From contig JBBAAI010000003.1 in the NCBI GenBank assembly GCA_041658325.1, forward strand, positions 2,201-66,200: a DNA stretch of 64,000 nucleotides, given 5' to 3'. The position numbers were made by a program, and so were the translations under genes. Source of the DNA: Minisyncoccota bacterium (GTDB taxonomy: Bacteria; Patescibacteriota; Minisyncoccia; Phycocordibacterales; UBA9973). The notes beneath the pieces are model-generated. The model did not search any database. It was not told where the DNA came from and worked only from the letters and a program-made list of their open reading frames with translations. This document shows, one piece after another, positions 85 to 61,343 of the stretch; position 1 is the first letter of the stretch; each line of letters opens with the position of its first letter.

Positions 85-2451
85 ATGAAAGAATATGAGC
101 ATTTGAAGCTGGAAAAAAAATGGCAAATACTTTGGGAGAAAAAAGGTATTTATCATGCTCAAAATAACTCTAAAAAACCTAAATATTATAGTTTAATTGA
201 GTTTCCGTATCCTTCTGGAGATGGACTTCATGTTGGACATCCGCGGCCATATATTGGCATGGATATTATTTCTAGAAAAAGAAGAATGGAGGGATTCAAT
301 GTTTTATATCCGATTGGCTGGGATGCCTTCGGTTTGCCGACAGAAAATTATGCGATAAAAACAGGCAAAGATCCGCGAGCAGTTACTAAAAAAAATACTG
401 ATACTTTTCGTCGACAAATAAAATCCTTAGGCGTGTCCTTTGACTGGTCACGAGAAATAAATACTACTGATCCGAAATATTATAAATGGACGCAATGGAT
501 ATTTTTGCAGTTCTTGAAAAAAGGTTTAGCTTATAAAGCTAAAATAGCGATAAATTGGTGTCCAAAAGATAAAACTGGTTTAGCAAATGAAGAAGTTGTC
601 GGTGGTGTTTGTGAGAGATGCGGAACCCCTGTAGAAAAAAGAGAAAAAGAGCAATGGATGCTTGCGATTACTAAATATGCGGAAAAGCTTGATAAGGATT
701 TAGATACGGTAGATTATCTTCCGCAAATAAAATTGGCGCAGAGGAATTGGATAGGGAAGTCCGAAGGGGCGGAGATAGAATTTCTAGTTGGTAAAAAAAT
801 TGTAAAAGTTTTCACTACTCGTCCGGATACAATTTTGGGTGCAACATATTTAGTCCTTGCGCCGGAACATGAATTGGTTCAAAAACTGAAAGATAAAATA
901 AAAAATTGGAATGAAGTTGAAAAATATATTAAAGAAATAAAAAACAAAACAGACATTGAACGTACTGCCGAGGATAAAACAAAAACGGGGGTAGAATTAA
1001 AAGGAATAAAGGCGATAAATCCAGCAAATAAAGAAGAAATTTCCATATGGATAGCTGATTATGTTTTAGCTACCTATGGTACCGGAGCAATAATGGCAGT
1101 ACCAAAGCATGATGAAAGAGACAGAGATTTTGCTCAAAAATACAATTTGCCGATAGTAGATAAACCTCTTGTTGATGCCAAAGAAATAACAAAAAAAGTT
1201 GGGGGGAAAATGGTCGTAAAATTCAAACTTCGCGATTGGGTTTTTTCGCGCCAGCGATATTGGGGAGAACCGATACCGGTTATACATTGTGAAAAGTGCG
1301 GAATTGTTCCTGTGCCGGAAAAGAACTTGCCGGTAGAACTTCCAAAAATAAAAAATTATGAGCCGACAGATAGTGGAGAATCACCATTAGCAAATATTTC
1401 AAAATGGGTGAATACTAAATGTCCAAAATGCAAAGGTAAAGCGAAAAGGGAAACGGACACGATGCCGAACTGGGCAGGTTCAAGTTGGTATTATCTTCGC
1501 TATGCTGATCCAAAAAACAAAAAAGTTTTTGCTGACAAGAAAAATTTAAAATACTGGACACCGGTGGACTGGTATAACGGCGGTAATGAACACACAACAC
1601 TTCATCTTTTATATTCTCGTTTTTGGCATAAATTTTTATACAACGAAGGGCTGGTATCAACTTCTGAACCATATAAAAAGCGCACGGCGCACGGGATGAT
1701 TTTGGGTGAAGGGGGAGTAAAAATGTCTAAGTCACTAGGAAATGTGATTAATCCAGATGAAATTGTAAAAATATACGGTGCAGACACTTTGCGTGTTTAT
1801 GAGATGTTTATGGGTCCATTTAACCAATCTGTCGCTTGGTCCACGGAGAGTATTATTGGTGCGAGAAGATTTATTGAAAAAGTTTGGAGAATTGGCAAAG
1901 GAATTTCAGAAAATCAGAAGAATTTTTCAGGTCCTCGGTTCTCCGAGGCCCCAAACCCCGGCCAGGCCGTTCAAAATTCTTCCGATTTTCTTTCAATAAG
2001 AAAACTTTTCCACAAAACAATTAAAAAAGTCACCGAAGACATAGAAGAGATGCATTTTAATACGGCGATTTCTGCAATGATGATTTTGGCTACGGAAATG
2101 GAAAAAACGGAAAAGATAGAAACAGAAGATTTTAAAAAATTCTTACAAATTTTGTCTCCTTTTGCGCCACACATCACGGAAGAAATCTGGAGTATTTTGG
2201 GAGAAAAAAAATCTATCAATGTTTCTTTGTGGCCCAGATGGGATAAAGATTTAATTCAAGATGAAAATGTGAAAATAGTAGTACAAATAAATGGTAAAGT
2301 TAGAACTGAAATTTTTATAAAATCTGATGAAAAAGAAGAAGAAATAAAGGAACAAACCATTAAAAATGAAGTTGTTTTAAGGTATTTAGCCGGTGGAGAA
2401 GCCAAAAAGATTATTTATGTGAAAAATAGACTTATAAATATTGTTGTTTAG
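85..2451 (+). CDS. leuS: Leucyl-tRNA synthetase
   Basis: 788-aa ORF; class I HIGH-type motif (LHVGHPRPY) and KMSKS (VKMSKSLGN); N-terminal PYPSGDGLHVGH and overall collinearity typical of bacterial LeuRS. Confidence 0.9.
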   Translation: MKEYEHLKLEKKWQILWEKKGIYHAQNNSKKPKYYSLIEFPYPSGDGLHVGHPRPYIGMDIISRKRRMEGFNVLYPIGWDAFGLPTENYAIKTGKDPRAVTKKNTDTFRRQIKSLGVSFDWSREINTTDPKYYKWTQWIFLQFLKKGLAYKAKIAINWCPKDKTGLANEEVVGGVCERCGTPVEKREKEQWMLAITKYAEKLDKDLDTVDYLPQIKLAQRNWIGKSEGAEIEFLVGKKIVKVFTTRPDTILGATYLVLAPEHELVQKLKDKIKNWNEVEKYIKEIKNKTDIERTAEDKTKTGVELKGIKAINPANKEEISIWIADYVLATYGTGAIMAVPKHDERDRDFAQKYNLPIVDKPLVDAKEITKKVGGKMVVKFKLRDWVFSRQRYWGEPIPVIHCEKCGIVPVPEKNLPVELPKIKNYEPTDSGESPLANISKWVNTKCPKCKGKAKRETDTMPNWAGSSWYYLRYADPKNKKVFADKKNLKYWTPVDWYNGGNEHTTLHLLYSRFWHKFLYNEGLVSTSEPYKKRTAHGMILGEGGVKMSKSLGNVINPDEIVKIYGADTLRVYEMFMGPFNQSVAWSTESIIGARRFIEKVWRIGKGISENQKNFSGPRFSEAPNPGQAVQNSSDFLSIRKLFHKTIKKVTEDIEEMHFNTAISAMMILATEMEKTEKIETEDFKKFLQILSPFAPHITEEIWSILGEKKSINVSLWPRWDKDLIQDENVKIVVQINGKVRTEIFIKSDEKEEEIKEQTIKNEVVLRYLAGGEAKKIIYVKNRLINIVV

Positions 2452-2526
2452 TTGTTTTTTAATATAAAGCTATGTATAATTAATCTTTGAACGTGTAGTT
2501 ATTATTTATTAATTTTTAAAAAACTT

Positions 2527-4602
2527 ATGAATTCAAATATTTTTGATAGGCTCTCGTTTTTAACATTGTTTTTAGTTATAGTTTTGTTACCCGTTTTCTT
2601 TTTACCTTTTACCAGTATTCCAGTTGAAATTTCTAAAGGTTTACTCTTGGTTTTAGGACTTTTAGTGTGTGTGATTTTTTGGGCATTGGCTAGATTTTTT
2701 GATGGTAAAATAATTTTACCGAAATCCTGGCTTTTAGTTTCAGGATTTGGAATAGTTTTAGTTTTCTTACTTTCTTCTCTTTTTTCTAAAACGCCTCAAG
2801 TGTCTTTATTTGGAACGATGTTTGATCTTGGTAGTTTTTATTTTATATTTTCTGGTTTTATTTTAATGTTGATGTCTTCTGTTGTTTTTAGAAATCAAAA
2901 AAGAGCAAAAATGGTTTTGTTGGGAACAATACTATCTTCAGCTTTTGTTTTAATTTTCCAAGGTTTTCATTTGTTTATGCCTAAAGTTCTTTCTTTGGGT
3001 GTTTTAGCTGAAAAAACTAGTAATGTTATAGGTTCCTGGAACGCGCTAGGTCTTTTTGCTGGTTTTTCTTGCCTCATGTTTCTTTTAGTAATTGAATTTT
3101 TCCCAATCTCTAAAGTAAGAAAAATTTTGCTAGAAGTATTTATTTTACTTTCAATTCTTTTAGCGGTGGTAATAAATTTCCCATTAGTCTGGGTGCTTCT
3201 TGGAATTTCAAGTTTACTTATCTTTGTTTATAAAGTTTCACTTACTTTTCACAGAGGTGGAGAAGAGGAAGAAAAAAAACAGTTTCCCATAGTTTCTTTT
3301 ATTGTTGTGATAACCTCCTTGTTGTTTTTTCTTTCTGGACAGTTCGTCGGTAATTTTATTCCGAATCGTTTACAGATAGCAAACACTGAAGTGAGTCCTT
3401 TTTTTAGTACGACTATGTCTATAACCAAGGGAGTGTTGATTAAAGACCCCATTTTTGGTATTGGCCCGAACAGATTTGGAGAAGCTTGGGCAATGCATAA
3501 ACCTCTCGCGATAAACACAAATGTAAACGGGAATGATTTTTCAGATATCTATTTTAATTCAGGTTCTGGATTGTTGCCCACTTTTATTGCTACTACCGGA
3601 AGTCTTGGCATTCTCTCTTGGGTTATTTTTTTAGTTTTGTTTTTAATTATTGGAGCGCGATCGGTATTTTCTAGCATTAAAAATGGAGCGAACTGGGAAA
3701 TGATGGCGTTTTTTGTATTATCTCTTTATTTGTTTGTTTCTTCCATATTTTATTCTGGAGGAATAGTGATATTTTTATTATCACTTGCTTTTGCTGGGGT
3801 ATTTATTGGGTTGTATACTTCAAATGAAGACAAAGGAATATTGGTTTCATTTTTAAATGATCATAGGAAAAGTTTTTTTTCCATACTTCTACTTGTGATG
3901 GTTGTAATTTTTTCTGTTATTGCCTCATTTAAATATGTAGAACGCTTTGTTTCTGTATCGTATTTTAAAAAGGCACTTTCGGCGCAAACTATTCCGTTAG
4001 CTCAAGATTATATTGGTAAAGCCCTTTCATTATATTCCAATGATTTATATTTACGTACTTATTCGCAAATATATCTTATGAAATTGAATTCCATCGCTAG
4101 CAAGAACTCAACCTTGTCTGATGTAGATAAGATAGACCTACAAGCAAGTTTTGACCAAGCGGTGAATAGCGCTCAGATGGCAGTGGCTTACGACTCATCA
4201 AATTATCTCAACTTTCAATTACTTGGATCTGTTTATCAAGCAGTCGGGGCGATCGGGGTAAAGGATGCTTATAGTAAAGCAGTTTTAGCTTATCAAAATG
4301 CCTCCAATTTGAATCCACTTAATCCAGGATTAAAACTAGCTGTAGCTAGCGCTTTATTTGCTGAAGAAAAAACAAAAGAAGCGAAAGATTATGCAAATAT
4401 CGCACTTTCTTTAAAGCCAGATTACATTGAAGCTCTCATTACTCTTTCCCAAATAGCAAAAAGTGAAGGTAACAACGCTGAAGCATTGTCTTATGCGCAA
4501 AAAGCCCTCTCGTTCGCCCCTGCTAATAAAAATTTAATAGAATATGTAAATTCTTTTAACACCCCAATTTCTCCTTCTTCCACCAATAAACCTAAACAGT
4601 AG
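2527..4602 (+). CDS. Polytopic membrane protein with C-terminal TPR-like repeats (O-antigen ligase/Wzy-like family, putative)
   Basis: 691-aa ORF, >10 hydrophobic helices in N-terminal 450 aa, C-terminal soluble domain with repeated A/Y/L-rich TPR-like units (LAYQNASNLNPLNP...ALSLKPDYIEA). Confidence 0.5.
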   Translation: MNSNIFDRLSFLTLFLVIVLLPVFFLPFTSIPVEISKGLLLVLGLLVCVIFWALARFFDGKIILPKSWLLVSGFGIVLVFLLSSLFSKTPQVSLFGTMFDLGSFYFIFSGFILMLMSSVVFRNQKRAKMVLLGTILSSAFVLIFQGFHLFMPKVLSLGVLAEKTSNVIGSWNALGLFAGFSCLMFLLVIEFFPISKVRKILLEVFILLSILLAVVINFPLVWVLLGISSLLIFVYKVSLTFHRGGEEEEKKQFPIVSFIVVITSLLFFLSGQFVGNFIPNRLQIANTEVSPFFSTTMSITKGVLIKDPIFGIGPNRFGEAWAMHKPLAINTNVNGNDFSDIYFNSGSGLLPTFIATTGSLGILSWVIFLVLFLIIGARSVFSSIKNGANWEMMAFFVLSLYLFVSSIFYSGGIVIFLLSLAFAGVFIGLYTSNEDKGILVSFLNDHRKSFFSILLLVMVVIFSVIASFKYVERFVSVSYFKKALSAQTIPLAQDYIGKALSLYSNDLYLRTYSQIYLMKLNSIASKNSTLSDVDKIDLQASFDQAVNSAQMAVAYDSSNYLNFQLLGSVYQAVGAIGVKDAYSKAVLAYQNASNLNPLNPGLKLAVASALFAEEKTKEAKDYANIALSLKPDYIEALITLSQIAKSEGNNAEALSYAQKALSFAPANKNLIEYVNSFNTPISPSSTNKPKQ

Positions 4603-4613
4603 ATTTATAACGA

Positions 4614-6293
4614 ATGGAAAAGATTTTACGAATTTTTACTAAAGAATCTGGAAGCATAAATCAAGCCGCTCTTCTTTTAGGTTGTCTGACTTTTTTATCT
4701 CAAATTTTAGCGCTTTTTCGTGATCGTTCTTTTGCTCACTTTATAGGACCATCTCCCGCGCTCGATGCTTATTATGCGGCTTTTCGAGTTCCAGATTTGA
4801 TTTTTATTTCTATAGCATCGCTTGCTTCTATCACAGTGATAATTCCTTTTATCGTCGCTAAGATGGATGGGGACAAGGTGACGCCTGAAGCACGGAAATA
4901 TTTGAATGATATTTTTACAGTTTTCTTTTCTTTAATGGTTTTAGTCGCGCTTATCGCTTTTTTTCTTATGCCGTATTTAACAAATTTTATTGCTCCAGGG
5001 TTTACGCCGTTTTATCAAGCAAAAGTGATTTTACTTTCGCGGATAATGTTGCTTTCGCCGATTTTAATGGGACTTTCAAATCTTTTCGGCACGGTTACTC
5101 AACTTTTCCGTAAATTTTTTATTTATTCTTTAAGTCCAATTTTTTATAATCTAGGAATTATTGTTGGAGTAATATTTTTTTATCCAATTTTTGGAATTTC
5201 TGGTTTAGCAATGGGAGTGGCGCTCGGCGCTCTGATGCATTTTGGAATACAGGCATTAGCTTCACACGGATGTGGTTTTACACCCAAATTTTCATTTTCT
5301 ATTAATTTCAAAGATATAAAAAACGTGGCCTTAACTTCTCTTCCTCGCACATTAGGTCTCGCTTTTAATAACATTTCTCTTATTTTTATAATAGCTCTAG
5401 CTTCCTTTTTAAAGAGTGGTTCTATCTCAGTATTTAATTTTGCGTTTAATCTGCAGTCGGTTCCATTAAATATTATTGGTATATCTTATGCCGTAGCGGC
5501 TTTCCCGACTTTAGCTAAAGCTTTCAGTAATGGCAAAAAAGAGGAATTTAAAAAACACCTAAAAGAAGCTTCTAGGGCAATAGTCTTTTGGTCTTTGCCG
5601 GTGATTTTTCTTTTTATTGTTCTTCGAGCGCAGATCGTTCGTGTTATTCTTGGCTCTGGAACTTTTTCTTGGGATAATACTCGTTTAGTCGCGGCTGGTC
5701 TTGCGATTTTTTCTGTTTCTATTCTTGCTCAAGGAATGATCACTTTGTTATCTCGTTCTTATTATGCTACTGGGAATACCAAGCGTCCACTTATTGTAAA
5801 TTTCTCCTCTTCCATTTTAATAATAATTTTATCTTTTATTTTTATTCGTCTTTTTGAAAATTGGAACTTTTTCCGATATTTTATAGAGTCTTTGCTAAAG
5901 GTGGGGGATATCGCTGGAACAGAAGTATTAATGCTTCCACTTGCATATTCCATAGGAACTATTTTAAATTTTGCGCTACTTTGGATTTTTGTAAAAAAAG
6001 ATTTTATGCCCAATGAGCTTTTTATCACTAAGACTTTTTTCCAAAGTCTGGGCGCGTCATTTTTTTTAGGGCTCATCACTTATTTAAGTCTGAACGTTCT
6101 TTCCCCAGTCTTTGGTACAACTACTTTTTGGGGTGTATTTCTCCAGGGTTTTATTTCTGGGATTTTGGGGATAGCTTCCGCCATTGTGGTTTTATTTTTG
6201 TTAAAGAGTGAAGAGTTAGATGATATTATAAAAACCCTAAAGACCAAATTTTGGCGCGCAAAAATTATTGCTCCTTCTCAAGAAGAACTTTAA
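4614..6293 (+). CDS. murJ: Lipid II flippase MurJ (MviN family)
   Basis: 559 aa, 14 predicted TM helices, N-terminal LLGCLTFLSQILALFRDRSFAHFIG...AFRVPDLIF typical of MurJ. Confidence 0.8.
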   Translation: MEKILRIFTKESGSINQAALLLGCLTFLSQILALFRDRSFAHFIGPSPALDAYYAAFRVPDLIFISIASLASITVIIPFIVAKMDGDKVTPEARKYLNDIFTVFFSLMVLVALIAFFLMPYLTNFIAPGFTPFYQAKVILLSRIMLLSPILMGLSNLFGTVTQLFRKFFIYSLSPIFYNLGIIVGVIFFYPIFGISGLAMGVALGALMHFGIQALASHGCGFTPKFSFSINFKDIKNVALTSLPRTLGLAFNNISLIFIIALASFLKSGSISVFNFAFNLQSVPLNIIGISYAVAAFPTLAKAFSNGKKEEFKKHLKEASRAIVFWSLPVIFLFIVLRAQIVRVILGSGTFSWDNTRLVAAGLAIFSVSILAQGMITLLSRSYYATGNTKRPLIVNFSSSILIIILSFIFIRLFENWNFFRYFIESLLKVGDIAGTEVLMLPLAYSIGTILNFALLWIFVKKDFMPNELFITKTFFQSLGASFFLGLITYLSLNVLSPVFGTTTFWGVFLQGFISGILGIASAIVVLFLLKSEELDDIIKTLKTKFWRAKIIAPSQEEL

Positions 6294-6406
6294 AACTCAG
6301 AGGCCTCTTTATCCACAGTATTTTTCTTTTATTCTTTTATTATGAGGATTATCCTGATATAATATATAAGTCTTGATTCAAGCTTTGAGTTAAGAAAAAG
6401 ATAAAA

Positions 6407-8407
6407 ATGCTAGAAAAAAAAAGCAGATCAAAATTAATTCTATTTAGGTTTTTTATTGTTGTCTTGTTGTTGTTTTTTGGCACTAAATTAGTTTTTGCAT
6501 CTGAAACAAATGGAATAATTGACGGAAATTATAAATACGCTTGGGGTGAAAATATTGGTTGGATTAATTTTGGTTGTGATAATTGCAATGTTAATGTTAC
6601 CGATGATGGTCTTTCGGGATATGCTTGGAGTACACAATATGGTTGGATAAATTTAGATCCAACTACTTCGGGAGTTCAAAATAACGGGCAAGGACTGCTC
6701 TCTGGTTATGCTTGGAGTCCAAATCTTGGTTGGATTAATTTTAACGGAGTTACGATATCCTCTAATGGATATTTTTTAGGTTATGCAACGATAGAATCTG
6801 ATAGTAGCCAAATTAATTTTAATTGCACCAATGCAGATTCTTGTAGTGGGGCAGATTTTAAAGTAAAAACTGATTGGAAACCAGCCAGCGCTAGACAGTC
6901 AGGAGGTAGTGGGGCTGGAGGTTCTGGTTTCCCTGTACCGCCAAATCCACCACCCGTCGTTCCTCCCACCATTCCTCCTGTTGTTCCACCAACAATTGTA
7001 AATGTAGTGGTGGATAATATCTCAGAAACCATAAATTCTATTTCTGATTCTTTTTTTAATTTATTTCAACCACAAAATAAACCTGAAAATACAATAGTTG
7101 AGATTCCTAAAATAGCGCCACTTTCATTAAAGGTGTTGTGGAATCTTTTGCCCAGAAAAGCCATAAAAGAATTTGTCTTTGCGCCGTTGCCATACGAAGT
7201 CCGTGTACTAGCTTCTAAATTTCCAGAACTCGACAGAACACTCAAAAGTGTCGGCATAAAAAGATTAACTGATATGAGTAAATTAAGTGGGGTAACTCTC
7301 AACCTTCCCGGACTTACGGAACTTACCAACACACTTAGAAATGTTGGGGCAGAAAGATTGGCTGGGGTAGATAAATTAAATAGCGTAAATTTCGATATTC
7401 CCGGGCTTTCTAATTTAGATGAAAAAATGGTAAATAATATTGGTGTAAACATAGGTACAGGGAAAATTTCCCTTATAAAAGGATTGCCGTTAACAAAATT
7501 TTCTCTGCTGGAAAAGAAAAACCTACCATCCGAATTCGTATTTGCTCGAACGAATGGTGAGCTTATTGATTTGAATGTAGCGATGTCAGTTAGTGAAAAA
7601 GGGGAAGTAACTCAAAAAATATCTTCTTTACCTGGCAAGACATTACGATTTGTGGTAAAGCCGATCAGCAAAGCTAGAAGCGTAACTGGTTATTTTATAT
7701 TTAAATCGGCCACACCTAAAATCACACAAAATCAAATTCCTCGATCTTCTCTCACTGCCTCGGCGCTATTTTCAATGAGTGGCTTAGTTGAAAAAACTTC
7801 CAAGTCTGTTCCCGTGGAAAATAAATTAGTGCTTTCTTCGTTTGAATACACTGACCTAGATCACGACGGAATATACACGGCTGACGTTGTTTCTCCTTCA
7901 GTGCCCGGTGAATATGAAGTTATCACTGTCATTGATTATTTAGATCCAGTACTCGGGGCTCGCCAAATGAGAATGATAACCGTTATTGACCCAGAAGGAT
8001 ATGTTTTTGAAAAAAATAACGGCAAAGAGACTCGTATTCCGTCAGCTATTATATCTCTTTATTCATTAAATAATTTAACTAAAAAATATGAGCTTTGGGT
8101 CGCGAAAGATTATCAACAGGAAAACCCGCAAATAACAGACGTTAGGGGAACTTATTCGTTTTTAGTGCCAGAAGGTTCCTATTATTTCCAGATAGAGGCA
8201 CCAGGCTATGATTTTTATCAAGGAAAAGCATTTGTTGTCGTAGAGGGAAGTGGAATCCACCAAAACATAGAATTAAAATCCAGCCGAGGGTGGTTTTCTG
8301 TATTTGACTGGAAAACCGTTCTTTTGATTGTCGTGTTATTATTATTAGTGTATAATTTATATCGTAATACCCTGCGAGATAAATTATTAAAATTTTCAAA
8401 CAAATGA
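6407..8407 (+). CDS. Secreted/anchored repeat protein (signal peptide, three Y-A-W-x-x-x-G-W-I-N-F/L repeats, Pro-rich linker, C-terminal TM anchor)
   Basis: N-terminal hydrophobic signal (FFIVVLLLFFGTKLVFA), repeats YAWGENIGWINF / YAWSTQYGWINL / YAWSPNLGWINF, PVPPNPPPVVPPTIPPVVPPTIV linker, C-terminal helix VLLIVVLLLLVY then basic tail; stop overlaps next start (ATGATGA). Confidence 0.5.
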   Translation: MLEKKSRSKLILFRFFIVVLLLFFGTKLVFASETNGIIDGNYKYAWGENIGWINFGCDNCNVNVTDDGLSGYAWSTQYGWINLDPTTSGVQNNGQGLLSGYAWSPNLGWINFNGVTISSNGYFLGYATIESDSSQINFNCTNADSCSGADFKVKTDWKPASARQSGGSGAGGSGFPVPPNPPPVVPPTIPPVVPPTIVNVVVDNISETINSISDSFFNLFQPQNKPENTIVEIPKIAPLSLKVLWNLLPRKAIKEFVFAPLPYEVRVLASKFPELDRTLKSVGIKRLTDMSKLSGVTLNLPGLTELTNTLRNVGAERLAGVDKLNSVNFDIPGLSNLDEKMVNNIGVNIGTGKISLIKGLPLTKFSLLEKKNLPSEFVFARTNGELIDLNVAMSVSEKGEVTQKISSLPGKTLRFVVKPISKARSVTGYFIFKSATPKITQNQIPRSSLTASALFSMSGLVEKTSKSVPVENKLVLSSFEYTDLDHDGIYTADVVSPSVPGEYEVITVIDYLDPVLGARQMRMITVIDPEGYVFEKNNGKETRIPSAIISLYSLNNLTKKYELWVAKDYQQENPQITDVRGTYSFLVPEGSYYFQIEAPGYDFYQGKAFVVVEGSGIHQNIELKSSRGWFSVFDWKTVLLIVVLLLLVYNLYRNTLRDKLLKFSNK

Positions 8408-8772
8408 TGATAGAAAATGAAAAGCGTTTTGTGGTCATATTTATTGTAATACTCGTTATCAGCAATGTATTTTTTGCTTACAAGTTTTTTTCCTTCTCTA
8501 AAGAATTAGAAACAATAAAATCTAATCAGGTAAAAGTTGAATTAAACCAAAAAATAATTAACTTTGCTTCAATGTTTATTAAAAAAGTATTACAAGCAGA
8601 AAAAGAAGTTGATTTTGAAACGAGGCTTTCACTTGAGAATGCGGTGCGTGATTTGAAAGACGAAGAAGTGATGGCCGAATGGCAAAATTTCACTGCGAGT
8701 AAAACAGAAGCAGATGCGCAGAATAGCGTGAAAAAGCTCTTAGGTATTTTGATAACCAAAATCCAGAAGTAA
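8404..8772 (+). CDS. Small membrane-anchored hypothetical protein
   Basis: 122 aa, single N-terminal TM helix (FVVIFIVILVISNVFFAY), start overlaps upstream stop (translational coupling). Confidence 0.4.
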   Translation: MMIENEKRFVVIFIVILVISNVFFAYKFFSFSKELETIKSNQVKVELNQKIINFASMFIKKVLQAEKEVDFETRLSLENAVRDLKDEEVMAEWQNFTASKTEADAQNSVKKLLGILITKIQK

Positions 8773-8799
8773 ATTTTGAAATAAGTCGTATTTGATTGT

Positions 8800-11700
8800 T
8801 TGAAAATTATGAAAAATATATTTTCTAAAATAAAAATAATATCAACGAACAAAATAGCTATTGCTTTATTTGTTTTTGTTGTGCTTGTTTTATTTTCAGC
8901 AAAAATGGTTTTCGCCGTTTGGAACGGTACTTTTTATGAACCGGGAGATACCTTAAATCCAGAATGTTTACCGACAGATGCAGATTGTGATGTTCGATCA
9001 CCACTTACTTCTGTAAATATAAGCGATACTGCCTATGATGCGACGACGTGGGATGGTGTGACGACGATATCTCCAAGTAAAAATGCTGTAAGGGATCAAA
9101 TAGAAACATTAGTAGCAAGTAATCATAATCCTCTTACTATTGGTACCGCTAATGGTCTTTCTTTAGCAACTCAAGTATTAAGTTTAGCGTTAGCTTCTAC
9201 TTCTACTACTGGAGCATTATCAGATACAGACTGGAATACTTTTAATAATAAAGCTTCAGCTCTTGGGGCAGACGATAACTATGTTACCGATGCGCAACTT
9301 GTAGTAGTCGGGAATACTTCCGGAACAAATTCTGGTGACAATGCTGTGAACTCTCTTTACTCTGGGCTCGCTGCTTCTAAACAAGATGCGTTAAATGGTA
9401 CTGGTTTTGTAAAAGCAACTGGTACAACTATTTCTTATGACAATTCAACTTATTTAGATACAGGGACTGCTTCCAGTACATATCTTCCTCTTGCAGGTGG
9501 AACTCTCACTGGTCTTCTGTCAACCAGCATTGATGGGAACAACGCCGTGACGGAGTTCTTGCAACTCACAAACTCAAATGAGCCGACAACAGGGCAAGTA
9601 GGCGACACGGCTTCCATCTCGTTTGATTTTTTCGGCACCATTAACAACGGGTCCAGTTATGCGCAAACTGAGGTCGCGAGGATCGAAGCGTATAAGTATG
9701 GAGATTTCTTCCACGCCACAGCACTCACAGACCATGATGTTGGGTTGAAGTTCTATACAATGGACGGGGGCACACAGAGAGAGACTGCATCCATGTCCGC
9801 TCCATTGGGTATAGGGTGGTTTCAACTCTTCTATGCTGGGACAATCGGCCCTGGGTTCTCTGCCACAAGTAGTTCAGCTATCTCGGCGACTACAAGTACC
9901 ATTGGGAACTTCGCATCCTTTAGTGCTAGTAACATATATGCGAAAGGTGGAGCGCTTCGTTCTCAGAACTCTGCAGCGACAGAGACATATTTCTACGCGG
10001 GTCAAGCATACACCGCTGTCAATTCTCTTTCCGCATATACCTGGGGCAACACAGCTACCGCAATTTCAGGCCTAGACACCGGCCTTTCGCGTGCGGCTGC
10101 GGGGGTTGTCCGCATCGGCTCTGGCGCAAGCGGCACGACGGACACGGGCGACCTCGTAATGCAGGACAACATCGAGTTCGAGGGTAGCGCGGCAGACGAT
10201 TTCGAGACACAGTTCACCGTCACCAACCCCACCGCAGACCGGACAATCACCATCCCCGATCTTACTGGAACGCTGGCACTTACTTCTGATTTAGGAACAT
10301 ATCTACCATTAGCAGGTGGAACCCTCACGGGTAATCTTATTGTTGGCGTTGCACCGACAGCTTCTGCAAACTACGGAACATTTTCTCTAGGAGGCGGTGC
10401 ATTTGATGGATCAACCGCTGGATATTTTGTTGGCTCAGCTTCGGGAACATCTTTAGCAGTGAATGAAGTATCTGGATATGTTGGTAATCTAATAGACGCA
10501 CAGGTGGGGGGAGTAAGTAAGTTTAGTGTGGATAATACAGGGGGAGTGCGCATAGGCACAACCACAACAAATACAGCAGGAACTATTCGTTATCTCAATT
10601 CTGATTTTCAGGGGTATGATGGCACAAGTTGGAAATCTTTGACTAATCTTGCATCAATTACAGGAGAAGCAACTGGTTTTCCGAATAGGACTGATACTGC
10701 AATTTCATTTAATAACGGTACTAGAAATTTTACAATAACCGGAACAAATTTTAAGGTGTATAGCAAGGGTGCAGAATTTACAAAAAATACAGAATCAATA
10801 GAAATACCAGATGTAACTGGATTATATTTTATTTATTATGATGCTACGACTCAAGCTCTTTCACAGAGCACTTCTCCTTGGTCACTCATAGATGGCACTA
10901 TCAACATAGGGACAGTGTATTGGAATACTTCTTTAGCTACAGGTCTTTTAGGGGAAGAACGACACGGGGTCACTATGGATGGAAATACTCATGAATTATT
11001 ACATAACACTGTTGGGTCGAGGTATAATACAGGTTTTACTGGTACTTTTAATTCTCCTCCCACTTTCTCTGTGACAGCTGGAAGTTTTTATGATGAAGAT
11101 ATAAAAAACGAAACTCTTTCTACTGAAACCACAGCTAGAGTTTTATATAGAACAGGGGCAAGTAGTACTTTCACAGCAGAGCAGGTAAATTATTATCACG
11201 AAGTCAGTGATATCATCCAATATGATAATGCTGGTTCGTTAGCTGATGTTACGAACAATAACTATGTCGCTTATTGGATTTTTGCTACCAATGACACAAT
11301 TACCCCCATTTATTCTTTAATGGGGCAAAGACAAGATACTAGCTTAGCAAATGCTCGAGCAAACAATACTTACGAAGGATTGTCTCTTAGCTCATTACCA
11401 TTCAAGGAAATGAAAGCTTTATATAGAATTATTTTAAGAAGAAGTGGCACCAGTGAGACATATCAAGAAATTCAAGATTTACGCTCAATCTCAAATTTAT
11501 CTTCAGGAACTTACCTTGCTTCAAATCACAGTTTACTGACAGGGCTTACGGATGATGATCATCCTCAATATTTGAATATTAATGGCAGAAGTGGAGGACA
11601 GACAGTTATAGGAGGTACAGATGCTACAGATATTTTAACCATACAAAACACGAGTACTACTGGCACGACGCTTACCAATCCAGCAATGTATCTGAAAGTA

Positions 11701-14346
11701 GGTGATTCTGGTGGAACTACAGCAATGACAATACTAAATAATGGCAACGTCGGAATCGGAACGACAGCACCAGCTTCTCGTTTTCATCTCGGTGTTGCGC
11801 CGACAGCTTCTGCAAATTACGGGACACTTTCTCTGGGTGGTGGAGCATTCGACGGCTCAACTTCAGGATACTTTGTTGGCTCGGCTTCTGGAACATCTTT
11901 AGCAGTAAATGAAGTATCTGGATATGTTGGGAATCTTCTTGATGCACAAGTGGCGGGAACAAGTAAGTTTAAGGTGAACAATGCAGGCATGGCGACGGCC
12001 ACCGCGTTCGTAGCGAACAACGGGGCCACCGCCGCTGGGACGCTCCAACTATTCGAGGACTCCGACAACGGTACAAACTCTGTCACTCTCCAGGGACCAG
12101 CGTCAACGGCTGATGTGACCGTGACGCTTCCGGCGTTGACCGGCACCGTGGCGCTCATGGGCGCAGCTACGCAGTCGGGGGATTTTTACACGAGCGGAAA
12201 TACATTCTCTGTGAGATCATGGATCGGTACCGCTTCGGGCAACGGTGAACTTTATGTGCGAAACGCGTCATTGCAACAACTAGTTTATGTCAGTGGGGCC
12301 AATGGTGGAGTCTACCTGCCGTCTACCGGTGCCGTCCGTTTCAGTAATTCTACTACCTCATGGGGGGGGAGCGACTCGGGAATAGACAGGTTCGATGTCG
12401 GGGTGGTTGGGATCACCAATGGCTCAACTGGCGATGGCAACTTGCGCATGCTGAGCAATATCGAGTTCGAGGGGTCAGCCGCCGATACGAATGAAACTCA
12501 GTTGACCGTCACCAACCCCACCACAGACCGGACCATTACCATCCCCGACCTTACTGGGACGCTTGCGACACTGGAGAACGCGAACACTTGGAGCGCCTCG
12601 CAATCACTAACTGCCGCAGATTCTTCTGCTTTGACTGACCTCCTAATTAATCCAACAGCAAAAACAAGCGGGAATTTGATAGATTTGCAAGTAGCATCTG
12701 CAAGTAAATTTTATGTAAGCTCTGCAGGAAACGTATTTCCTGCTGGAGAAATTTATTTGGGAGCAGGACAAGGTTTGTCTACCTTGGCACTTGGTGGAAC
12801 ACTTATTCTACAAGGTAGAAATATGAACGCTGCGACTGGAGCCGCTGCGGTAAGAATGGGGATAGGAACTCATTCTCCAAGTAGTGGAACAAGTATCGGA
12901 GTAGATGTAACGCCAACAATAAATCAAACGGACACTGCAGCAACATCCGTTTTAAGAGTATCACCCTATTTGCAAGCGACAGGTTCAGGAACTCAACTTT
13001 TAGCTGACTTTGGAACAAATACTGCAGGAAGTGGTGGGGGGACACATACTTCAATTTTCAAGTTTGGAACTAATGGAAATTTAACCTTAACTGGAAACGT
13101 TGTAAACTCAAACAGTGGCACAGGATTTTACTCTGGGTATTCGGTATCAGGAACTGGGAATGTTAATTTAATAGTAGCTCAAGGGGCAGCGAGAACCAAC
13201 ACTTCAGGTGCTCAAGCGTTCTTTGCGGTTATCCCGTCATACAACCAAGCTAGTGGAACTGCCGCCAATACCGACCTCCTCATTAACAGAACTCAAACCG
13301 CAGTGGGTAGTGGAGCACAACTTTTGATTGATGCACAAGTGGGAAGCGTAAGTAAGTTTAGTGTAACGAATGCGGGGGTGGTTCAACAAAAAGGTTGTAC
13401 AACAGCTGGAGCGCTATTTGCGGATACTTCAGGGAATGTAATTTGTGATCCTTCAAGAGCAGAATTTAAGGACAATATTGTTGATTTGAATAACGGTCTT
13501 TCAAGTATTCTTGCTCTTCGTCCTGTTTCTTATACTTTTAAACCAGAAATGAATATGGGAAGTGAAACTTATTTTGGATTTATATCTGGGGAAGTTGCTT
13601 TAATTGCTCCAGAATTTGCTACTTATGATGCAGAAGGAAAACCTTATGGATTGGACACAAAGGCTCTTCTTGCCACGACCATCAAAGCTATCCAAGAAAT
13701 GAATTTGAGTTTAGAAGGAATTGCTGGAATTAGTATCCCTGTTCCTGGTTCTCCTACAGAATCTTTTGTTACTGCTTTCTTTGCTAAGATGGGTGCTTGG
13801 TTGGCAGATGCGGGTAATGGAATAGCCAATATTTTTGCCAAAGAAGTTAATACAAATACCCTATGTGTTTCTGACGATTCCGGCTCGAAAACTTGTATAA
13901 CTAAAGCTCAACTAGATACTTTGCTTTCTGGGGCGGGTTCTACTGCTACCTCAACAGTGCCACCAGTAGTAGTCCCTACTTGTACCGCTCCACAAACCTT
14001 AGTAGATAATGTTTGTACCGATCCAGCGCCAGAAACTCCTACTTGTACAGCTCCACAAACCCTCGTGGATAATGTCTGTACTGATCCGACAGCCGTAGAT
14101 CCTCCCGTAGTAGAACCTCCTGTCTGTACAGCTCCTCAAACCTTAGTAGGCAATGTCTGCACTGATCCGACGCCAGTAGCTCCAACATGTATAGATCCAC
14201 AAATTTTAGTAGATAACGTTTGTACGGACCCTGCGCCTGCGCCTGTAATTCCACCACCAGAACCCACTCCGCCACCAGTACCCGATCCCGTAGTAGAACC
14301 GATCCCAACACCCGCACCTGATCCAGTAGTAGAAACTACTCCATAA
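8800..14346 (+). CDS. Giant (1848 aa) membrane-anchored fibre/adhesin-like protein with phage tail-fibre-type intramolecular chaperone (Peptidase S74-like) domain and C-terminal Cys-loop repeats
   Basis: N-terminal signal-anchor; internally duplicated cassettes (LGVAPTASANYGTxSLGGGAFDGST..GYFVGSASGTSLAVNEVSGYVGNL.DAQV.G.SKF; IEFEGSAAD..ETQ.TVTNPT.DRTITIPDLTGTLA); S74-like block SRAEFKDNIVDLNNGLSSILALRPVSYTFK...GFISGEVALIAPEF...GLDTKALLATTIKAIQEMN; five CTAPQTLVDNVCTDP repeats. Confidence 0.7.
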   Translation: MKIMKNIFSKIKIISTNKIAIALFVFVVLVLFSAKMVFAVWNGTFYEPGDTLNPECLPTDADCDVRSPLTSVNISDTAYDATTWDGVTTISPSKNAVRDQIETLVASNHNPLTIGTANGLSLATQVLSLALASTSTTGALSDTDWNTFNNKASALGADDNYVTDAQLVVVGNTSGTNSGDNAVNSLYSGLAASKQDALNGTGFVKATGTTISYDNSTYLDTGTASSTYLPLAGGTLTGLLSTSIDGNNAVTEFLQLTNSNEPTTGQVGDTASISFDFFGTINNGSSYAQTEVARIEAYKYGDFFHATALTDHDVGLKFYTMDGGTQRETASMSAPLGIGWFQLFYAGTIGPGFSATSSSAISATTSTIGNFASFSASNIYAKGGALRSQNSAATETYFYAGQAYTAVNSLSAYTWGNTATAISGLDTGLSRAAAGVVRIGSGASGTTDTGDLVMQDNIEFEGSAADDFETQFTVTNPTADRTITIPDLTGTLALTSDLGTYLPLAGGTLTGNLIVGVAPTASANYGTFSLGGGAFDGSTAGYFVGSASGTSLAVNEVSGYVGNLIDAQVGGVSKFSVDNTGGVRIGTTTTNTAGTIRYLNSDFQGYDGTSWKSLTNLASITGEATGFPNRTDTAISFNNGTRNFTITGTNFKVYSKGAEFTKNTESIEIPDVTGLYFIYYDATTQALSQSTSPWSLIDGTINIGTVYWNTSLATGLLGEERHGVTMDGNTHELLHNTVGSRYNTGFTGTFNSPPTFSVTAGSFYDEDIKNETLSTETTARVLYRTGASSTFTAEQVNYYHEVSDIIQYDNAGSLADVTNNNYVAYWIFATNDTITPIYSLMGQRQDTSLANARANNTYEGLSLSSLPFKEMKALYRIILRRSGTSETYQEIQDLRSISNLSSGTYLASNHSLLTGLTDDDHPQYLNINGRSGGQTVIGGTDATDILTIQNTSTTGTTLTNPAMYLKVGDSGGTTAMTILNNGNVGIGTTAPASRFHLGVAPTASANYGTLSLGGGAFDGSTSGYFVGSASGTSLAVNEVSGYVGNLLDAQVAGTSKFKVNNAGMATATAFVANNGATAAGTLQLFEDSDNGTNSVTLQGPASTADVTVTLPALTGTVALMGAATQSGDFYTSGNTFSVRSWIGTASGNGELYVRNASLQQLVYVSGANGGVYLPSTGAVRFSNSTTSWGGSDSGIDRFDVGVVGITNGSTGDGNLRMLSNIEFEGSAADTNETQLTVTNPTTDRTITIPDLTGTLATLENANTWSASQSLTAADSSALTDLLINPTAKTSGNLIDLQVASASKFYVSSAGNVFPAGEIYLGAGQGLSTLALGGTLILQGRNMNAATGAAAVRMGIGTHSPSSGTSIGVDVTPTINQTDTAATSVLRVSPYLQATGSGTQLLADFGTNTAGSGGGTHTSIFKFGTNGNLTLTGNVVNSNSGTGFYSGYSVSGTGNVNLIVAQGAARTNTSGAQAFFAVIPSYNQASGTAANTDLLINRTQTAVGSGAQLLIDAQVGSVSKFSVTNAGVVQQKGCTTAGALFADTSGNVICDPSRAEFKDNIVDLNNGLSSILALRPVSYTFKPEMNMGSETYFGFISGEVALIAPEFATYDAEGKPYGLDTKALLATTIKAIQEMNLSLEGIAGISIPVPGSPTESFVTAFFAKMGAWLADAGNGIANIFAKEVNTNTLCVSDDSGSKTCITKAQLDTLLSGAGSTATSTVPPVVVPTCTAPQTLVDNVCTDPAPETPTCTAPQTLVDNVCTDPTAVDPPVVEPPVCTAPQTLVGNVCTDPTPVAPTCIDPQILVDNVCTDPAPAPVIPPPEPTPPPVPDPVVEPIPTPAPDPVVETTP
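13453..13710 (+). other. Peptidase S74 / tail-fibre intramolecular chaperone auto-processing domain (putative Ser-Lys dyad S-R-A-E-F-K)
   Basis: Motif-by-motif agreement with the endosialidase/tail-spike C-terminal chaperone consensus (SD.RLK.DI...L.LRPVSY.wK....GfiAQEv....PElV.......dY..L...Li.AiQEL). Confidence 0.6.
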
Positions 14347-14380
14347 AATGCATTCATTTTTAAATTTATGTGTTATAATA

Positions 14381-60186: not shown

Positions 60187-61104
60187 TTATTTGTTTGTAA
60201 TTTCACCTCCTTGTATTGTGAAGGGAAGTAAACACAAACTGAATGTGGTGTTTATCACATCTTTACTAGAAGTGACGAATATTCCAGACGAAGACGCCAT
60301 ATCAAAATCAAAACTTCCTAAGGCGTAGTTTCCGTCTGGTAAATCAGATTCAAGTGTTACCTTGTAAACATCCTTGTAGACTTCTTCCACCTTAAGGCGT
60401 ATTAGACGCTTGATTAGTTTCTCACGATATTTATATTTAAATATGATTCGATCGTTTTCCTTTTCCAATTTAACAACAGCGAGATTTTGAAGTGGTAAGT
60501 CGGCTAATTGGCGGAACTCTTCATTCTCAATATTAGAGGCAAATCTAGTTTGCGAAATGTAAAATGTAAACGAAGGACGATGTGAGGTTACGACTGGAGG
60601 CTTCACGTTATTGAAATAACACGTTTCTCCGTCACCGACAGAAAAGGGGGTTAACGCAAGAACGGCCAAGTTGGGCGCCTTTTCTTTTCGTGTCAATTTT
60701 CCAGGTTCTAGTTTGGCAAGTTTGCCATCGTCACCCATAATATATACACCCGGATTGTATCCTGCCATTGGATCATTGGGGTCGGTTTGTGTTTCCGGTA
60801 TTTCAGAGATCGCTGGAGAGGCCAGTTTTTGTTGGCTTTTTAGCATCTCTGTAATGATCTCGTTGGAGATACCCGCGCTCTTGAGTGCTTTTAGAGCTTC
60901 GATACTCGTGTCGTATTCACCGATCACGGTTTGAATTTTTGCAATCACGGCTTCATCAGGCAGATCCATGTTGTGCATCTCCACGATTTGTGCATTATCG
61001 AACATTTGGACTTGATCAGTCTCTTGAGACACAGGTTGTTGTGTGAAAGTTGTTACAGTGCAGGTGATGACAAGAACAACGATGAAAAGCTTGCTTTTTA
61101 ACAT
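60187..61104 (-). CDS. Hypothetical secreted protein in GC-richer, SD-bearing island
   Basis: Signal peptide MLKSKLFIVVLVITCTVTTFT; strong SD GAAGGAGGAG 5 nt upstream of ATG, unlike neighbouring native genes. Confidence 0.45.
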   Translation of the reverse strand: MLKSKLFIVVLVITCTVTTFTQQPVSQETDQVQMFDNAQIVEMHNMDLPDEAVIAKIQTVIGEYDTSIEALKALKSAGISNEIITEMLKSQQKLASPAISEIPETQTDPNDPMAGYNPGVYIMGDDGKLAKLEPGKLTRKEKAPNLAVLALTPFSVGDGETCYFNNVKPPVVTSHRPSFTFYISQTRFASNIENEEFRQLADLPLQNLAVVKLEKENDRIIFKYKYREKLIKRLIRLKVEEVYKDVYKVTLESDLPDGNYALGSFDFDMASSSGIFVTSSKDVINTTFSLCLLPFTIQGGEITNK

Positions 61105-61343
61105 GTTCTCCTCCTTCTGCAACCTTTCAGATTGCGGGATTGTTATTGCTTAGATTAATGTGATTTAACAACAAAAAAACGACGTGTGTGCAGAGAAGCT
61201 TGTTTCTAAGCATCATTGAAAGTGCATTATGTCAAGTAACTTTACTAATATTAAAATACCACAACTTAAAATTTTTATCAATAGATATTTTTTATATCCT
61301 AAAGATATTCTTAGCTATTTATTATTATGTTATAATAGAAACG

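Follow-up and report, generated by a model that had tools for sequence, protein, structure and literature searches.

The tail-fibre genes of tailed phages are mosaic. In gp37/gp38 of the T-even phages and gene H of P2, recombination at short conserved motifs swaps adhesin segments, and such module exchange at conserved motifs is textbook knowledge for phage fibres. Bacteria of the Candidate Phyla Radiation (CPR), or Patescibacteria, have tiny genomes, yet retain several very large surface proteins. We analysed a 64,000-nt stretch (the window; positions 2,201 to 66,200 of contig JBBAAI010000003.1, assembly GCA_041658325.1) of a Minisyncoccota bacterium, which contains a giant gene with tail-fibre modules. 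Two blocks of this gene, designated A and B, are written in codons typical of a GC-richer genome. We propose that they are tail-fibre cassettes, probably acquired by horizontal transfer from one or more donors of higher guanine-plus-cytosine (GC) content, recombined in or next to conserved linker-coding sequences and not yet ameliorated. The gene is as follows.

8809..14346, + strand: giant gene, 1845 aa plus stop; ATG at 8809, alternative TTG start at 8800; a single open reading frame (ORF)

The window had a mean GC content of 36%. In 300-nt windows the bulk GC rose twice within the giant gene, from about 0.35 to 0.58–0.59. When the codon positions were separated, the GC content of third positions (GC3) increased from 0.2–0.25 to 0.5–0.8 in two blocks, while that of the first and second positions (GC1 and GC2) remained roughly constant. 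Amino-acid composition was ruled out as the cause of the rise, because GC1 and GC2 barely changed. The 15 neighbouring genes had a GC3 of 0.20–0.32.

A two-state maximum likelihood fit placed change points at 9517 (support interval 9502–9538), 10258 (10252–10279), 11965 (11944–11986) and 12601 (12595–12616). The boundaries of the blocks were resolved to 20–40 nt. GC3 was 0.62 inside the blocks versus 0.23 outside, and the log-likelihood gain over a homogeneous gene was 111. The blocks are thus compositionally atypical DNA with discrete boundaries.

9517..10258, + strand: GC-rich block A; GC3 about 0.6, foreign codon usage
11965..12601, + strand: GC-rich block B; GC3 about 0.63, paralogous to A

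A and B were alike in codon choice (GGC/GGG, ACC, AAC, GAC and ATC, with TTA absent), which is typical of a mid- to high-GC genome. GC3 over 60 codons peaked at 0.78 in the giant gene, and none of the other long ORFs exceeded 0.55 (38 long ORFs in the window). For a wider comparison, 79 loci encoding relatives of the N-terminal domain were fetched, and their giant ORFs were scanned together with those of other relatives' loci, about 77 giant ORFs in all. Windows more than 0.25 above the host GC3 median numbered 347 in the giant gene versus 110 and 62 in the next two. The giant gene is therefore an extreme GC3-island outlier among the giant ORFs of the fetched loci.

A third GC-rich spot (13865–14375), in the Cys- and Pro-rich tail of the protein, had a normal GC3 of 0.23–0.30. 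It served as an internal control and is not part of the mosaic. The GC-rich blocks also carried two antisense ORFs (10002–10328, − strand, 108 aa; 11817–12158, − strand, 113 aa), most likely a by-product of stop-codon scarcity in GC-rich sequence.

The blocks were bounded and connected by repeated motifs, which are listed below in order along the gene.

9481..9513, + strand: linker motif YLPLAGGTLTG, copy 1; left junction of A just 3' of the motif
10171..10278, + strand: module 1, copy A (IEFEGSAADDFETQFTVTNPTADRTITIPDLTGTLA); GC style, right junction of A inside
10300..10332, + strand: linker motif YLPLAGGTLTG, copy 2; AT style, 83% nt identity to copy 1
10345..10541, + strand: module 2, copy 1 (GVAPTASANYGT...LIDAQVGGVSKF); AT style
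11791..11987, + strand: module 2, copy 2; AT style up to the tail, left junction of B in the tail
12052..12156, + strand: diverged module-1-like copy at the start of cassette B (FEDSDNGTNSVTLQGPASTADVTVTLPALTGTVAL); at most 80% identity to small phage-like proteins
12460..12567, + strand: module 1, copy B (IEFEGSAADTNETQLTVTNPTTDRTITIPDLTGTLA); GC style
12676..12711, + strand: module-2 tail motif, third copy (LIDLQVASASKF); AT style
13324..13359, + strand: module-2 tail motif, fourth copy (LIDAQVGSVSKF); coding sequence 80–90% nt identical across related genomes

Module 1 (IEFEGSAAD..TITIPDLTGTLA) was found at the 3' end of each GC-rich block. Its two copies were identical at 32 of 36 aa and had 80% nt identity over 121 nt. 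The copies of module 2 (GVAPTASANYGT...SKF) were identical at 56 of 62 aa, with 83% nt identity over 197 nt. The third and fourth partial copies consisted of the module 2 tail, L[IL]D[AL]QV..SKF, and the fourth was visible also in the nucleotides (84% over 38 nt).

These results bore out the observations of the first-pass annotation. It had described a switch from AT-rich to GC-rich composition within one ORF, and the switch was seen twice. The stretches that it had placed at about 9530–10300 and 11960–12560 were refined to the limits given above, and the near-identical module that it had reported at the end of both is module 1. Its second module, at about 10320 and 11790 with about 80% nt identity, and its partial copies at about 12650 and 13300 were all recovered. 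The GC profile, which it had expected to be flat if the claim were wrong, was not flat.

The two blocks proved to be paralogous, with 37% identity over 184 aa (E 3e-29). Each was laid out as a module-1-like repeat, a body and module 1. In Nei–Gojobori estimates, the synonymous divergence (dS) was 0.64 for the module 2 pair and about 1.0 for the module 1 pair, and the non-synonymous divergence (dN) was 0.06 and 0.14, respectively. Because of these values of dS and dN, the repeat copies are ancient and under purifying selection. A recent in-situ duplication of A and B or of the modules was ruled out by the same dS values and by the low identity between A and B.

The style of each pair suggested where it had diverged. 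The module 1 copies would have diverged while GC-rich, that is, outside this genome, and the module 2 copies in an AT-rich background. Since both module 2 copies are in the native AT style, they are conserved linkers and not imported material.

The junctions were then placed on the protein. Junction 1, to the left of A, lies between YLPLAGGTLTGL and LSTS, at the YLPLAGGTLTG motif. Junction 2, to the right of A, lies between TITIP and DLTGTLA, inside module 1. Junction 3, to the left of B, lies between LLDAQVAGTS and KFKV, in the module 2 tail. Junction 4, to the right of B, lies between TLATLENANTWSAS and QSLT, 12 codons past module 1. Three of the four composition junctions thus fall at conserved motifs, and the fourth 12 codons past one.

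About 430 relatives were aligned to the giant protein, and the ends of similarity were counted where the relative's own sequence continued. The ends piled up at aa 226–240, 481–525 and 1261–1275, which coincide with the composition junctions. The relative P0007, for example, matched up to aa 229 and again from aa 1262. The gene thus contains variable segments bounded by short conserved motifs, with the breakpoints at these motifs.

The closest allele, P0002 (locus L003, ENA sample ERZ27247817), was 90–100% identical in aa at aa 41–140 and 85–95% at aa 1269–1348. Across block B the identity was 10–30%, with large gaps, and the segment of P0002 was shorter (167 versus 212 codons) and had a GC3 of 0.23. 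This segment was rejected as an AT-style homologue of B, as the residue-level identity was 22% and the gaps were large. At the nucleotide level, homology to L003 was absent across B and returned at 12616 (82% over 212 nt). The change point, at 12601, is 15 nt away. P0002 thus carries a different cassette between the same flanks.

A 78-nt patch just upstream of A (9379–9456 versus 557–634 of L003) showed 97% identity against a flanking 5' background of about 80%. This suggested a recent gene conversion between related lineages.

The locus was also found in more distant relatives. In L008 (Candidatus Nomurabacteria GW2011_GWB1_40_7) the DNA was colinear with positions 162–9344 of the window at 73–82% nt identity, and diverged within the giant gene. 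L010 and L011 (Paceibacterota, Nomurabacteria metagenome-assembled genomes, MAGs) had two upstream genes, of 666 and 122 aa, in common with the window. Their giant genes shared the 5' end to about 9250 and the 3' end from about 13150–13230, and the interiors were unrelated. Two motif-coding stretches, for GNVGIGTT (11742–11777) and LIDAQVGSVSKF (13311–13381), were 80–90% identical in nucleotides between genomes, with flanks at 66–73%. Such conserved stretches may provide the micro-homology for exchange.

Other members of the family showed compositional departures of their own. L012 (Paceibacterota SO_2017_GW1_189) contained tandem repeats of about 125 aa (ALGADDNYVTDAQLVVLGNTSGTNSG...) at 10523–11570, with a GC3 of about 0.52 versus a host median of 0.29. 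Within this protein family, the repeats are a second compositional island, less pronounced than the first. In L009, L011, L021 and L049 the third positions of the giant ORFs were markedly more AT-rich than those of the host genes (GC3 of, for example, 0.30 versus 0.41 and 0.22 versus 0.37), which is consistent with exchange across GC classes both ways.

Searches with the single blocks returned mostly short proteins (150–460 aa) from marine and other metagenomes, some of which carried T4_gp9_10, Mtd_N or Phage_T7_tail domains. They matched chiefly the module of about 40 aa, at 70–86%, and a few matched the whole cassette at 31–44%. Module 1 matched phrog_38058, a 'tail fiber protein', and P0017, a giant protein on a phage-like contig, contained 13 stretches matching this family. 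The module was present in the Pelagibacter phages HTVC008M ('baseplate wedge initiator', in 6–9 places), HTVC115P, Kolga ('tail fiber') and Mosig ('putative peptidase S74'), and in the cyanophage SS120-1. It was almost absent from the 120 closest CPR relatives.

A degenerate GC-style probe for module 1, run against metagenome and viral contigs, found three viral contigs, all in IMG/VR, which shared the module alone. Two of the three had 66–67% GC and encoded a 274-aa protein with the module near the N-terminus. The IMG/VR contigs with module 1 spanned 39–67% GC. Because the module was found in contigs of 66–67% GC as well as in AT-rich phages, it would seem to circulate in phages across the whole GC range.

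Between the two blocks lies a domain in the AT style that also has phage relatives.

10669..11496, + strand: central AT-style beta-rich domain, core (aa about 621–896); widespread, unannotated

This domain had 882 cluster representatives at E<1e-30, and no match in Pfam, PHROGs, NCBIfam or PDB sequences (the last searched with a profile). The core of its AlphaFold model had a predicted local distance difference test (pLDDT) score of about 90. In Foldseek the model matched fibre-type proteins of uncultured Caudovirales, about 1000–1250 aa long, some of them with S74 or Mtd_N domains (E about 1e-27; template-modelling score, TM, 0.57). Against the PDB there was a weak match to phi812 baseplate proteins (E 3e-6, TM-score 0.25). 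Module 1 and the central domain are therefore segments common to the fibre genes of unrelated phages and genomes. About 25 residues of the domain were invariant, including E151, H153, H341 and H352 in the numbering of the aligned segment, and the domain is a candidate for a new family. The AlphaFold model of cassette B, from a 17-sequence alignment, had a pLDDT of 50, too low to use.

A donor was sought with the GC-rich segments alone. Among 5.8 billion protein clusters, no homologue of the A body exceeded 48% identity (83 aa), and none of the B body exceeded 38–44%. No close relatives of the two bodies were found in IMG/VR and JGI metagenome contigs, and an exact GC-style pattern had no match in IMG/VR. 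The higher-GC members of the family among the fetched loci (L009, L017, L056 and L084) encoded nothing like A or B. In the fetched loci, a GC3 near 0.6 went with a genome GC of roughly 55–60%.

The giant gene lies among housekeeping genes, which encode LeuRS, a TPR protein, MurJ, an ABC transporter, LepA, a 2-hydroxyacid dehydrogenase, enolase and PPDK. A gene for a DUF5671 protein lies farther upstream on the longer contig. There are no other phage genes nearby, and three other Paceibacterota MAGs keep the synteny of the locus. The locus therefore belongs to the cellular chromosome of a CPR bacterium and not to a prophage, and the giant gene is not part of a phage genome. An identical protein is recorded at NCBI as MFA5778352.1, 'MAG: tail fiber domain-containing protein [Candidatus Paceibacterota bacterium]'. 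The remaining features of the protein are at its two ends.

8809..8916, + strand: N-terminal hydrophobic segment (MKNIFSKIKIISTNKIAIALFVFVVLVLFSAKMVFA), read from the translation
13459..13617, + strand: Peptidase_S74 domain (intramolecular chaperone of endosialidase and tail fibres); the sole Pfam match in the giant protein
13960..14237, + strand: four Cys-containing repeats (CTAPQTLVDNVCTDP), followed by a Pro-rich tail; GC-rich via amino-acid composition alone, GC3 0.23–0.30

The hydrophobic segment may act as a signal or an anchor. The Peptidase_S74 match (PF13884) scored 25.7 bits versus a cut-off of 22 (E 1.4e-5) and covered aa 1551–1603 in the 1845-aa numbering, or aa 1554–1606 of the 1848-aa translation. 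In this region the sequence PSRAEFKDNI, read by eye from the translation, has a Ser and a Lys five residues apart. They stand where the Ser-Lys dyad of the S74 family would be expected, and may correspond to it. Because the hydrophobic segment, the fibre modules and the S74 domain occur together, the protein is predicted to be a cell-surface fibre with an exchangeable interior, and presumably with exchangeable binding or antigenic properties.

The whole giant protein had no matches in NCBIfam, PHROGs or PDB sequences. Of the 5.8 billion protein clusters, none covered more than 40% of it. Literature searches turned up no specific account of giant proteins of the S74 or tail-fibre-like kind in CPR bacteria.

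The region after the S74 domain (13618–14343, about 240 residues) contains an amphipathic stretch, the four CTAPQTLVDNVCTDP repeats and the Pro-rich tail. Similar tails were seen in P0002 (89% identity over 37 aa) and L012. Directly upstream of the giant gene (6407–8772) are the 666-aa gene, with a weak CarboxypepD_reg match, and the 122-aa gene, with no family match. Their position is kept in L008, L010 and L011 (three Paceibacterota/Nomurabacteria MAGs), and the three genes may form a functional unit.

Elsewhere in the window, a 311-aa ORF without a Pfam match (60187–61122, − strand) had a GC3 of 0.41 (maximum 0.55) versus a background of about 0.25. No other long ORF, the giant gene apart, departed even mildly in composition. 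Spots at 34.3, 48.0–48.5 and 50.3–50.7 kb had a GC of merely 0.43–0.45, and a search against Rfam gave nothing there beyond one tRNA.

We observed directly the compositional mosaic, the positions of the junctions and the paralogy of A and B, as well as the affinity of the modules to phages and a locus that is conserved while its interiors vary. As to how and in which direction the transfer took place, what kind of donor was involved and what the protein does, our proposal is as follows. The gene, on the chromosome of an AT-rich, Nomurabacteria-like member of the Paceibacterota, would encode a giant surface protein that is anchored at its N-terminus and resembles phage tail fibres. This protein would be a chain of modules joined by short linkers: YLPLAGGTLTG, module 1 (..TITIPDLTGTLA), the module 2 tail (LIDAQVxGxSKF) and GNVGIGT. 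A and B, having diverged from each other in a GC-rich background and not as in-situ duplicates, would have been acquired horizontally from one or more donors with a GC content of at least roughly 55%. By recombination in or beside the linker-coding sequences, they would have replaced whatever stood between the linkers. The capture may be recent, the synonymous sites having not yet drifted to the AT bias of the host. This would be likely to alter the length of a cell-surface fibre, its antigenicity or the specificity of its binding.

As donor, a tail-fibre gene carried by a phage or derived from one is the most likely. A phage is favoured because this type of cassette is typical of phages and nearly absent from the closest CPR relatives. 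One may go further and suppose that a CPR cell, presumed to be attached to other microbes, retargets its attachment fibre with receptor-binding cassettes taken from phages of GC-richer bacteria, possibly its own host or its neighbours. We give this extension little credence. If true, symbionts would be reusing determinants of phage host range as determinants of their own, and the foreign codons would mark a very recent capture.

Several results weigh against the proposed import from a higher-GC, probably phage, donor. No donor or partner allele was found in the protein, viral and metagenome collections, so that we infer import from composition and comparative breakpoints and do not regard it as demonstrated. 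Among the HMMER matches listed (at least about 243 bits), the places were filled by the central domain, which said little on A and B. All sampled phage copies with higher protein similarity were AT-style, and because of this it is the distribution of the modules that points to a phage origin of A and B. GC3 dipped to 0.40–0.47 in the middle of the blocks (9790–10000 and 12160–12300), with 0.6–0.8 on either side. These dips could represent finer mosaicism or partial amelioration. Lastly, the three assemblies in which the DNA is identical (NCBI MAG, ENA MEGAHIT (k141) and Logan) may share one sample or read set, and their agreement is at the assembly level.

This last point bears on a chimera, in which the reads of a GC-richer organism were joined via shared repeats. 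The source is a metagenome-assembled genome and repeated motifs bound the blocks, as a chimera would have it. On the other hand, besides the agreement of the three assemblies, the 5.5-kb reading frame is intact through all four junctions, the longest exact match between repeat copies is about 23 nt, far below the final k, and the protein architecture across the junctions is the norm for the family. We regard a chimera as extremely unlikely. An origin in situ, with GC3 raised in native sequence by local codon selection, GC-biased gene conversion (gBGC) or mutational bias, is very unlikely as well. Recombination-associated GC enrichment is known in bacteria, and mild GC3 rises to 0.45–0.55 occurred in some motif-coding stretches of relatives. 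The rise here is +0.39, with edges of 20–40 nt, far above the known effects of gBGC, and no other gene of the 64 kb shows the pattern. Furthermore, where block B would stand, P0002 has a segment of ordinary AT style, and the AT style also persists in the module 2 copies and the central domain, which are repeated or conserved to the same degree. The least probable of all is a programmed diversification, by a diversity-generating retroelement (DGR) or by recombination with silent cassettes as in pilE/pilS or vlsE. Passages in metagenome surveys describe DGRs as targeting tail-fibre-type proteins, and some homologues of the modules carry an Mtd_N domain. A template/variable repeat pair of a DGR was ruled out by the substitutions between the repeat copies, which were of all twelve types with no adenine specificity. 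No blastn or tblastn match to any part of the giant gene was found in the remaining 58 kb of the window, so that there is no local store of silent cassettes of the pilE/pilS or vlsE type. The dS of the repeat copies also argued against such a system.

The same import from a cellular donor, a mid- or high-GC member of the Patescibacteria or another bacterium with a tail-fibre-like surface protein, is an unlikely reading, to be taken more seriously than the preceding three. Members of the family occur in hosts with a GC3 of 0.53–0.75 (L009, L017, L056, a Paceibacterota of 54% GC, and L084). The first 60–85 aa of A resemble the sequence that follows YLPLAGGTLTG in giant relatives (P0098, P0040 and others; 41% identity over q109–320). 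The donor search and the scarcity of module 1 in close relatives, described above, speak against a cellular source, as do the block searches, which gave short proteins and no cellular giant. Those examined (P0241, P0246, P0128 and the giant P0017) look phage-like. Import by recombination from a higher-GC source, most probably a phage, is thus the reading that we prefer, and the claims of the first-pass annotation on origin can be judged by it. Recombinational import from a higher-GC source was supported by the synonymous shift, the sharp edges at motifs and the coincidence of the breakpoints with those of the relatives, and module exchange of the tail-fibre type by the syntenic orthologues with swapped interiors and by a repeat module of the phage tail-fibre/baseplate type. 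The identical duplications in all relatives, named as counter-evidence, were not seen. Its search for the donor lineage came to nothing. Of its 'cassette shuffling or recombination', the import stood, and programmed or in-genome shuffling was not supported, as silent copies were absent from the 64 kb and the duplicates are old.

The locus bears on partner recognition by CPR bacteria, in that at least one giant surface protein appears to be built entirely from phage tail-fibre parts. Its chromosomal position is conserved, and its interior is replaced between related species. Two cassettes retain the codon usage of a genome whose GC content is higher by roughly 20 percentage points. The gene would thus offer a tangible case, open to dating, of transfer within a gene between genomes of widely different composition, and the linker motifs could serve as markers for cassette exchange in other CPR genomes and populations.

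Compared with the known systems, the giant gene resembles the mosaic fibre genes of phages in encoding a modular fibre protein, in which conserved linkers flank variable segments and the breakpoints lie at or next to the motifs. Segments common to unrelated genomes and a C-terminal chaperone-type domain are further points of likeness. It differs from them in lying on a cellular chromosome among housekeeping genes and in its putative N-terminal signal or anchor, and the exchange is seen here as a jump in GC3 and not as a match to a known donor.

The resemblance to the giants of other Paceibacterota and Patescibacteria (P0004 in JBAZXO010000001, P0011, P0015; L008) includes the N-terminal domain, with up to 88% aa identity, the same locus and upstream genes, the C-terminal region with Peptidase_S74 and the linker motifs. 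Their interiors, on the other hand, are unrelated and have no GC3 islands of comparable size, the next best being that of L012. The repeat module of marine phage fibre and baseplate proteins (FEG..AD..ET.L.V..PTADRT.T.PD.sGT) is 52–65% identical to that found here and also occurs in several copies per protein. HTVC008M and B have in common the unit module–body–module, at 35% identity over 75% of B. The marine proteins, however, are virion proteins of AT-rich phages with AT-style codons, and the similarity is weak outside the module of about 40 aa.

The likeness to the endosialidase and tail-spike chaperone (PF13884) is a Pfam match above the gathering threshold. In the characterised S74 proteins the chaperone is C-terminal, whereas here about 240 residues follow it. 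The locus reveals no new mechanism. It adds a clean new case of a known process, the exchange of modules in fibre genes, seen here in the unusual host setting of a chromosomal surface giant of a CPR bacterium.

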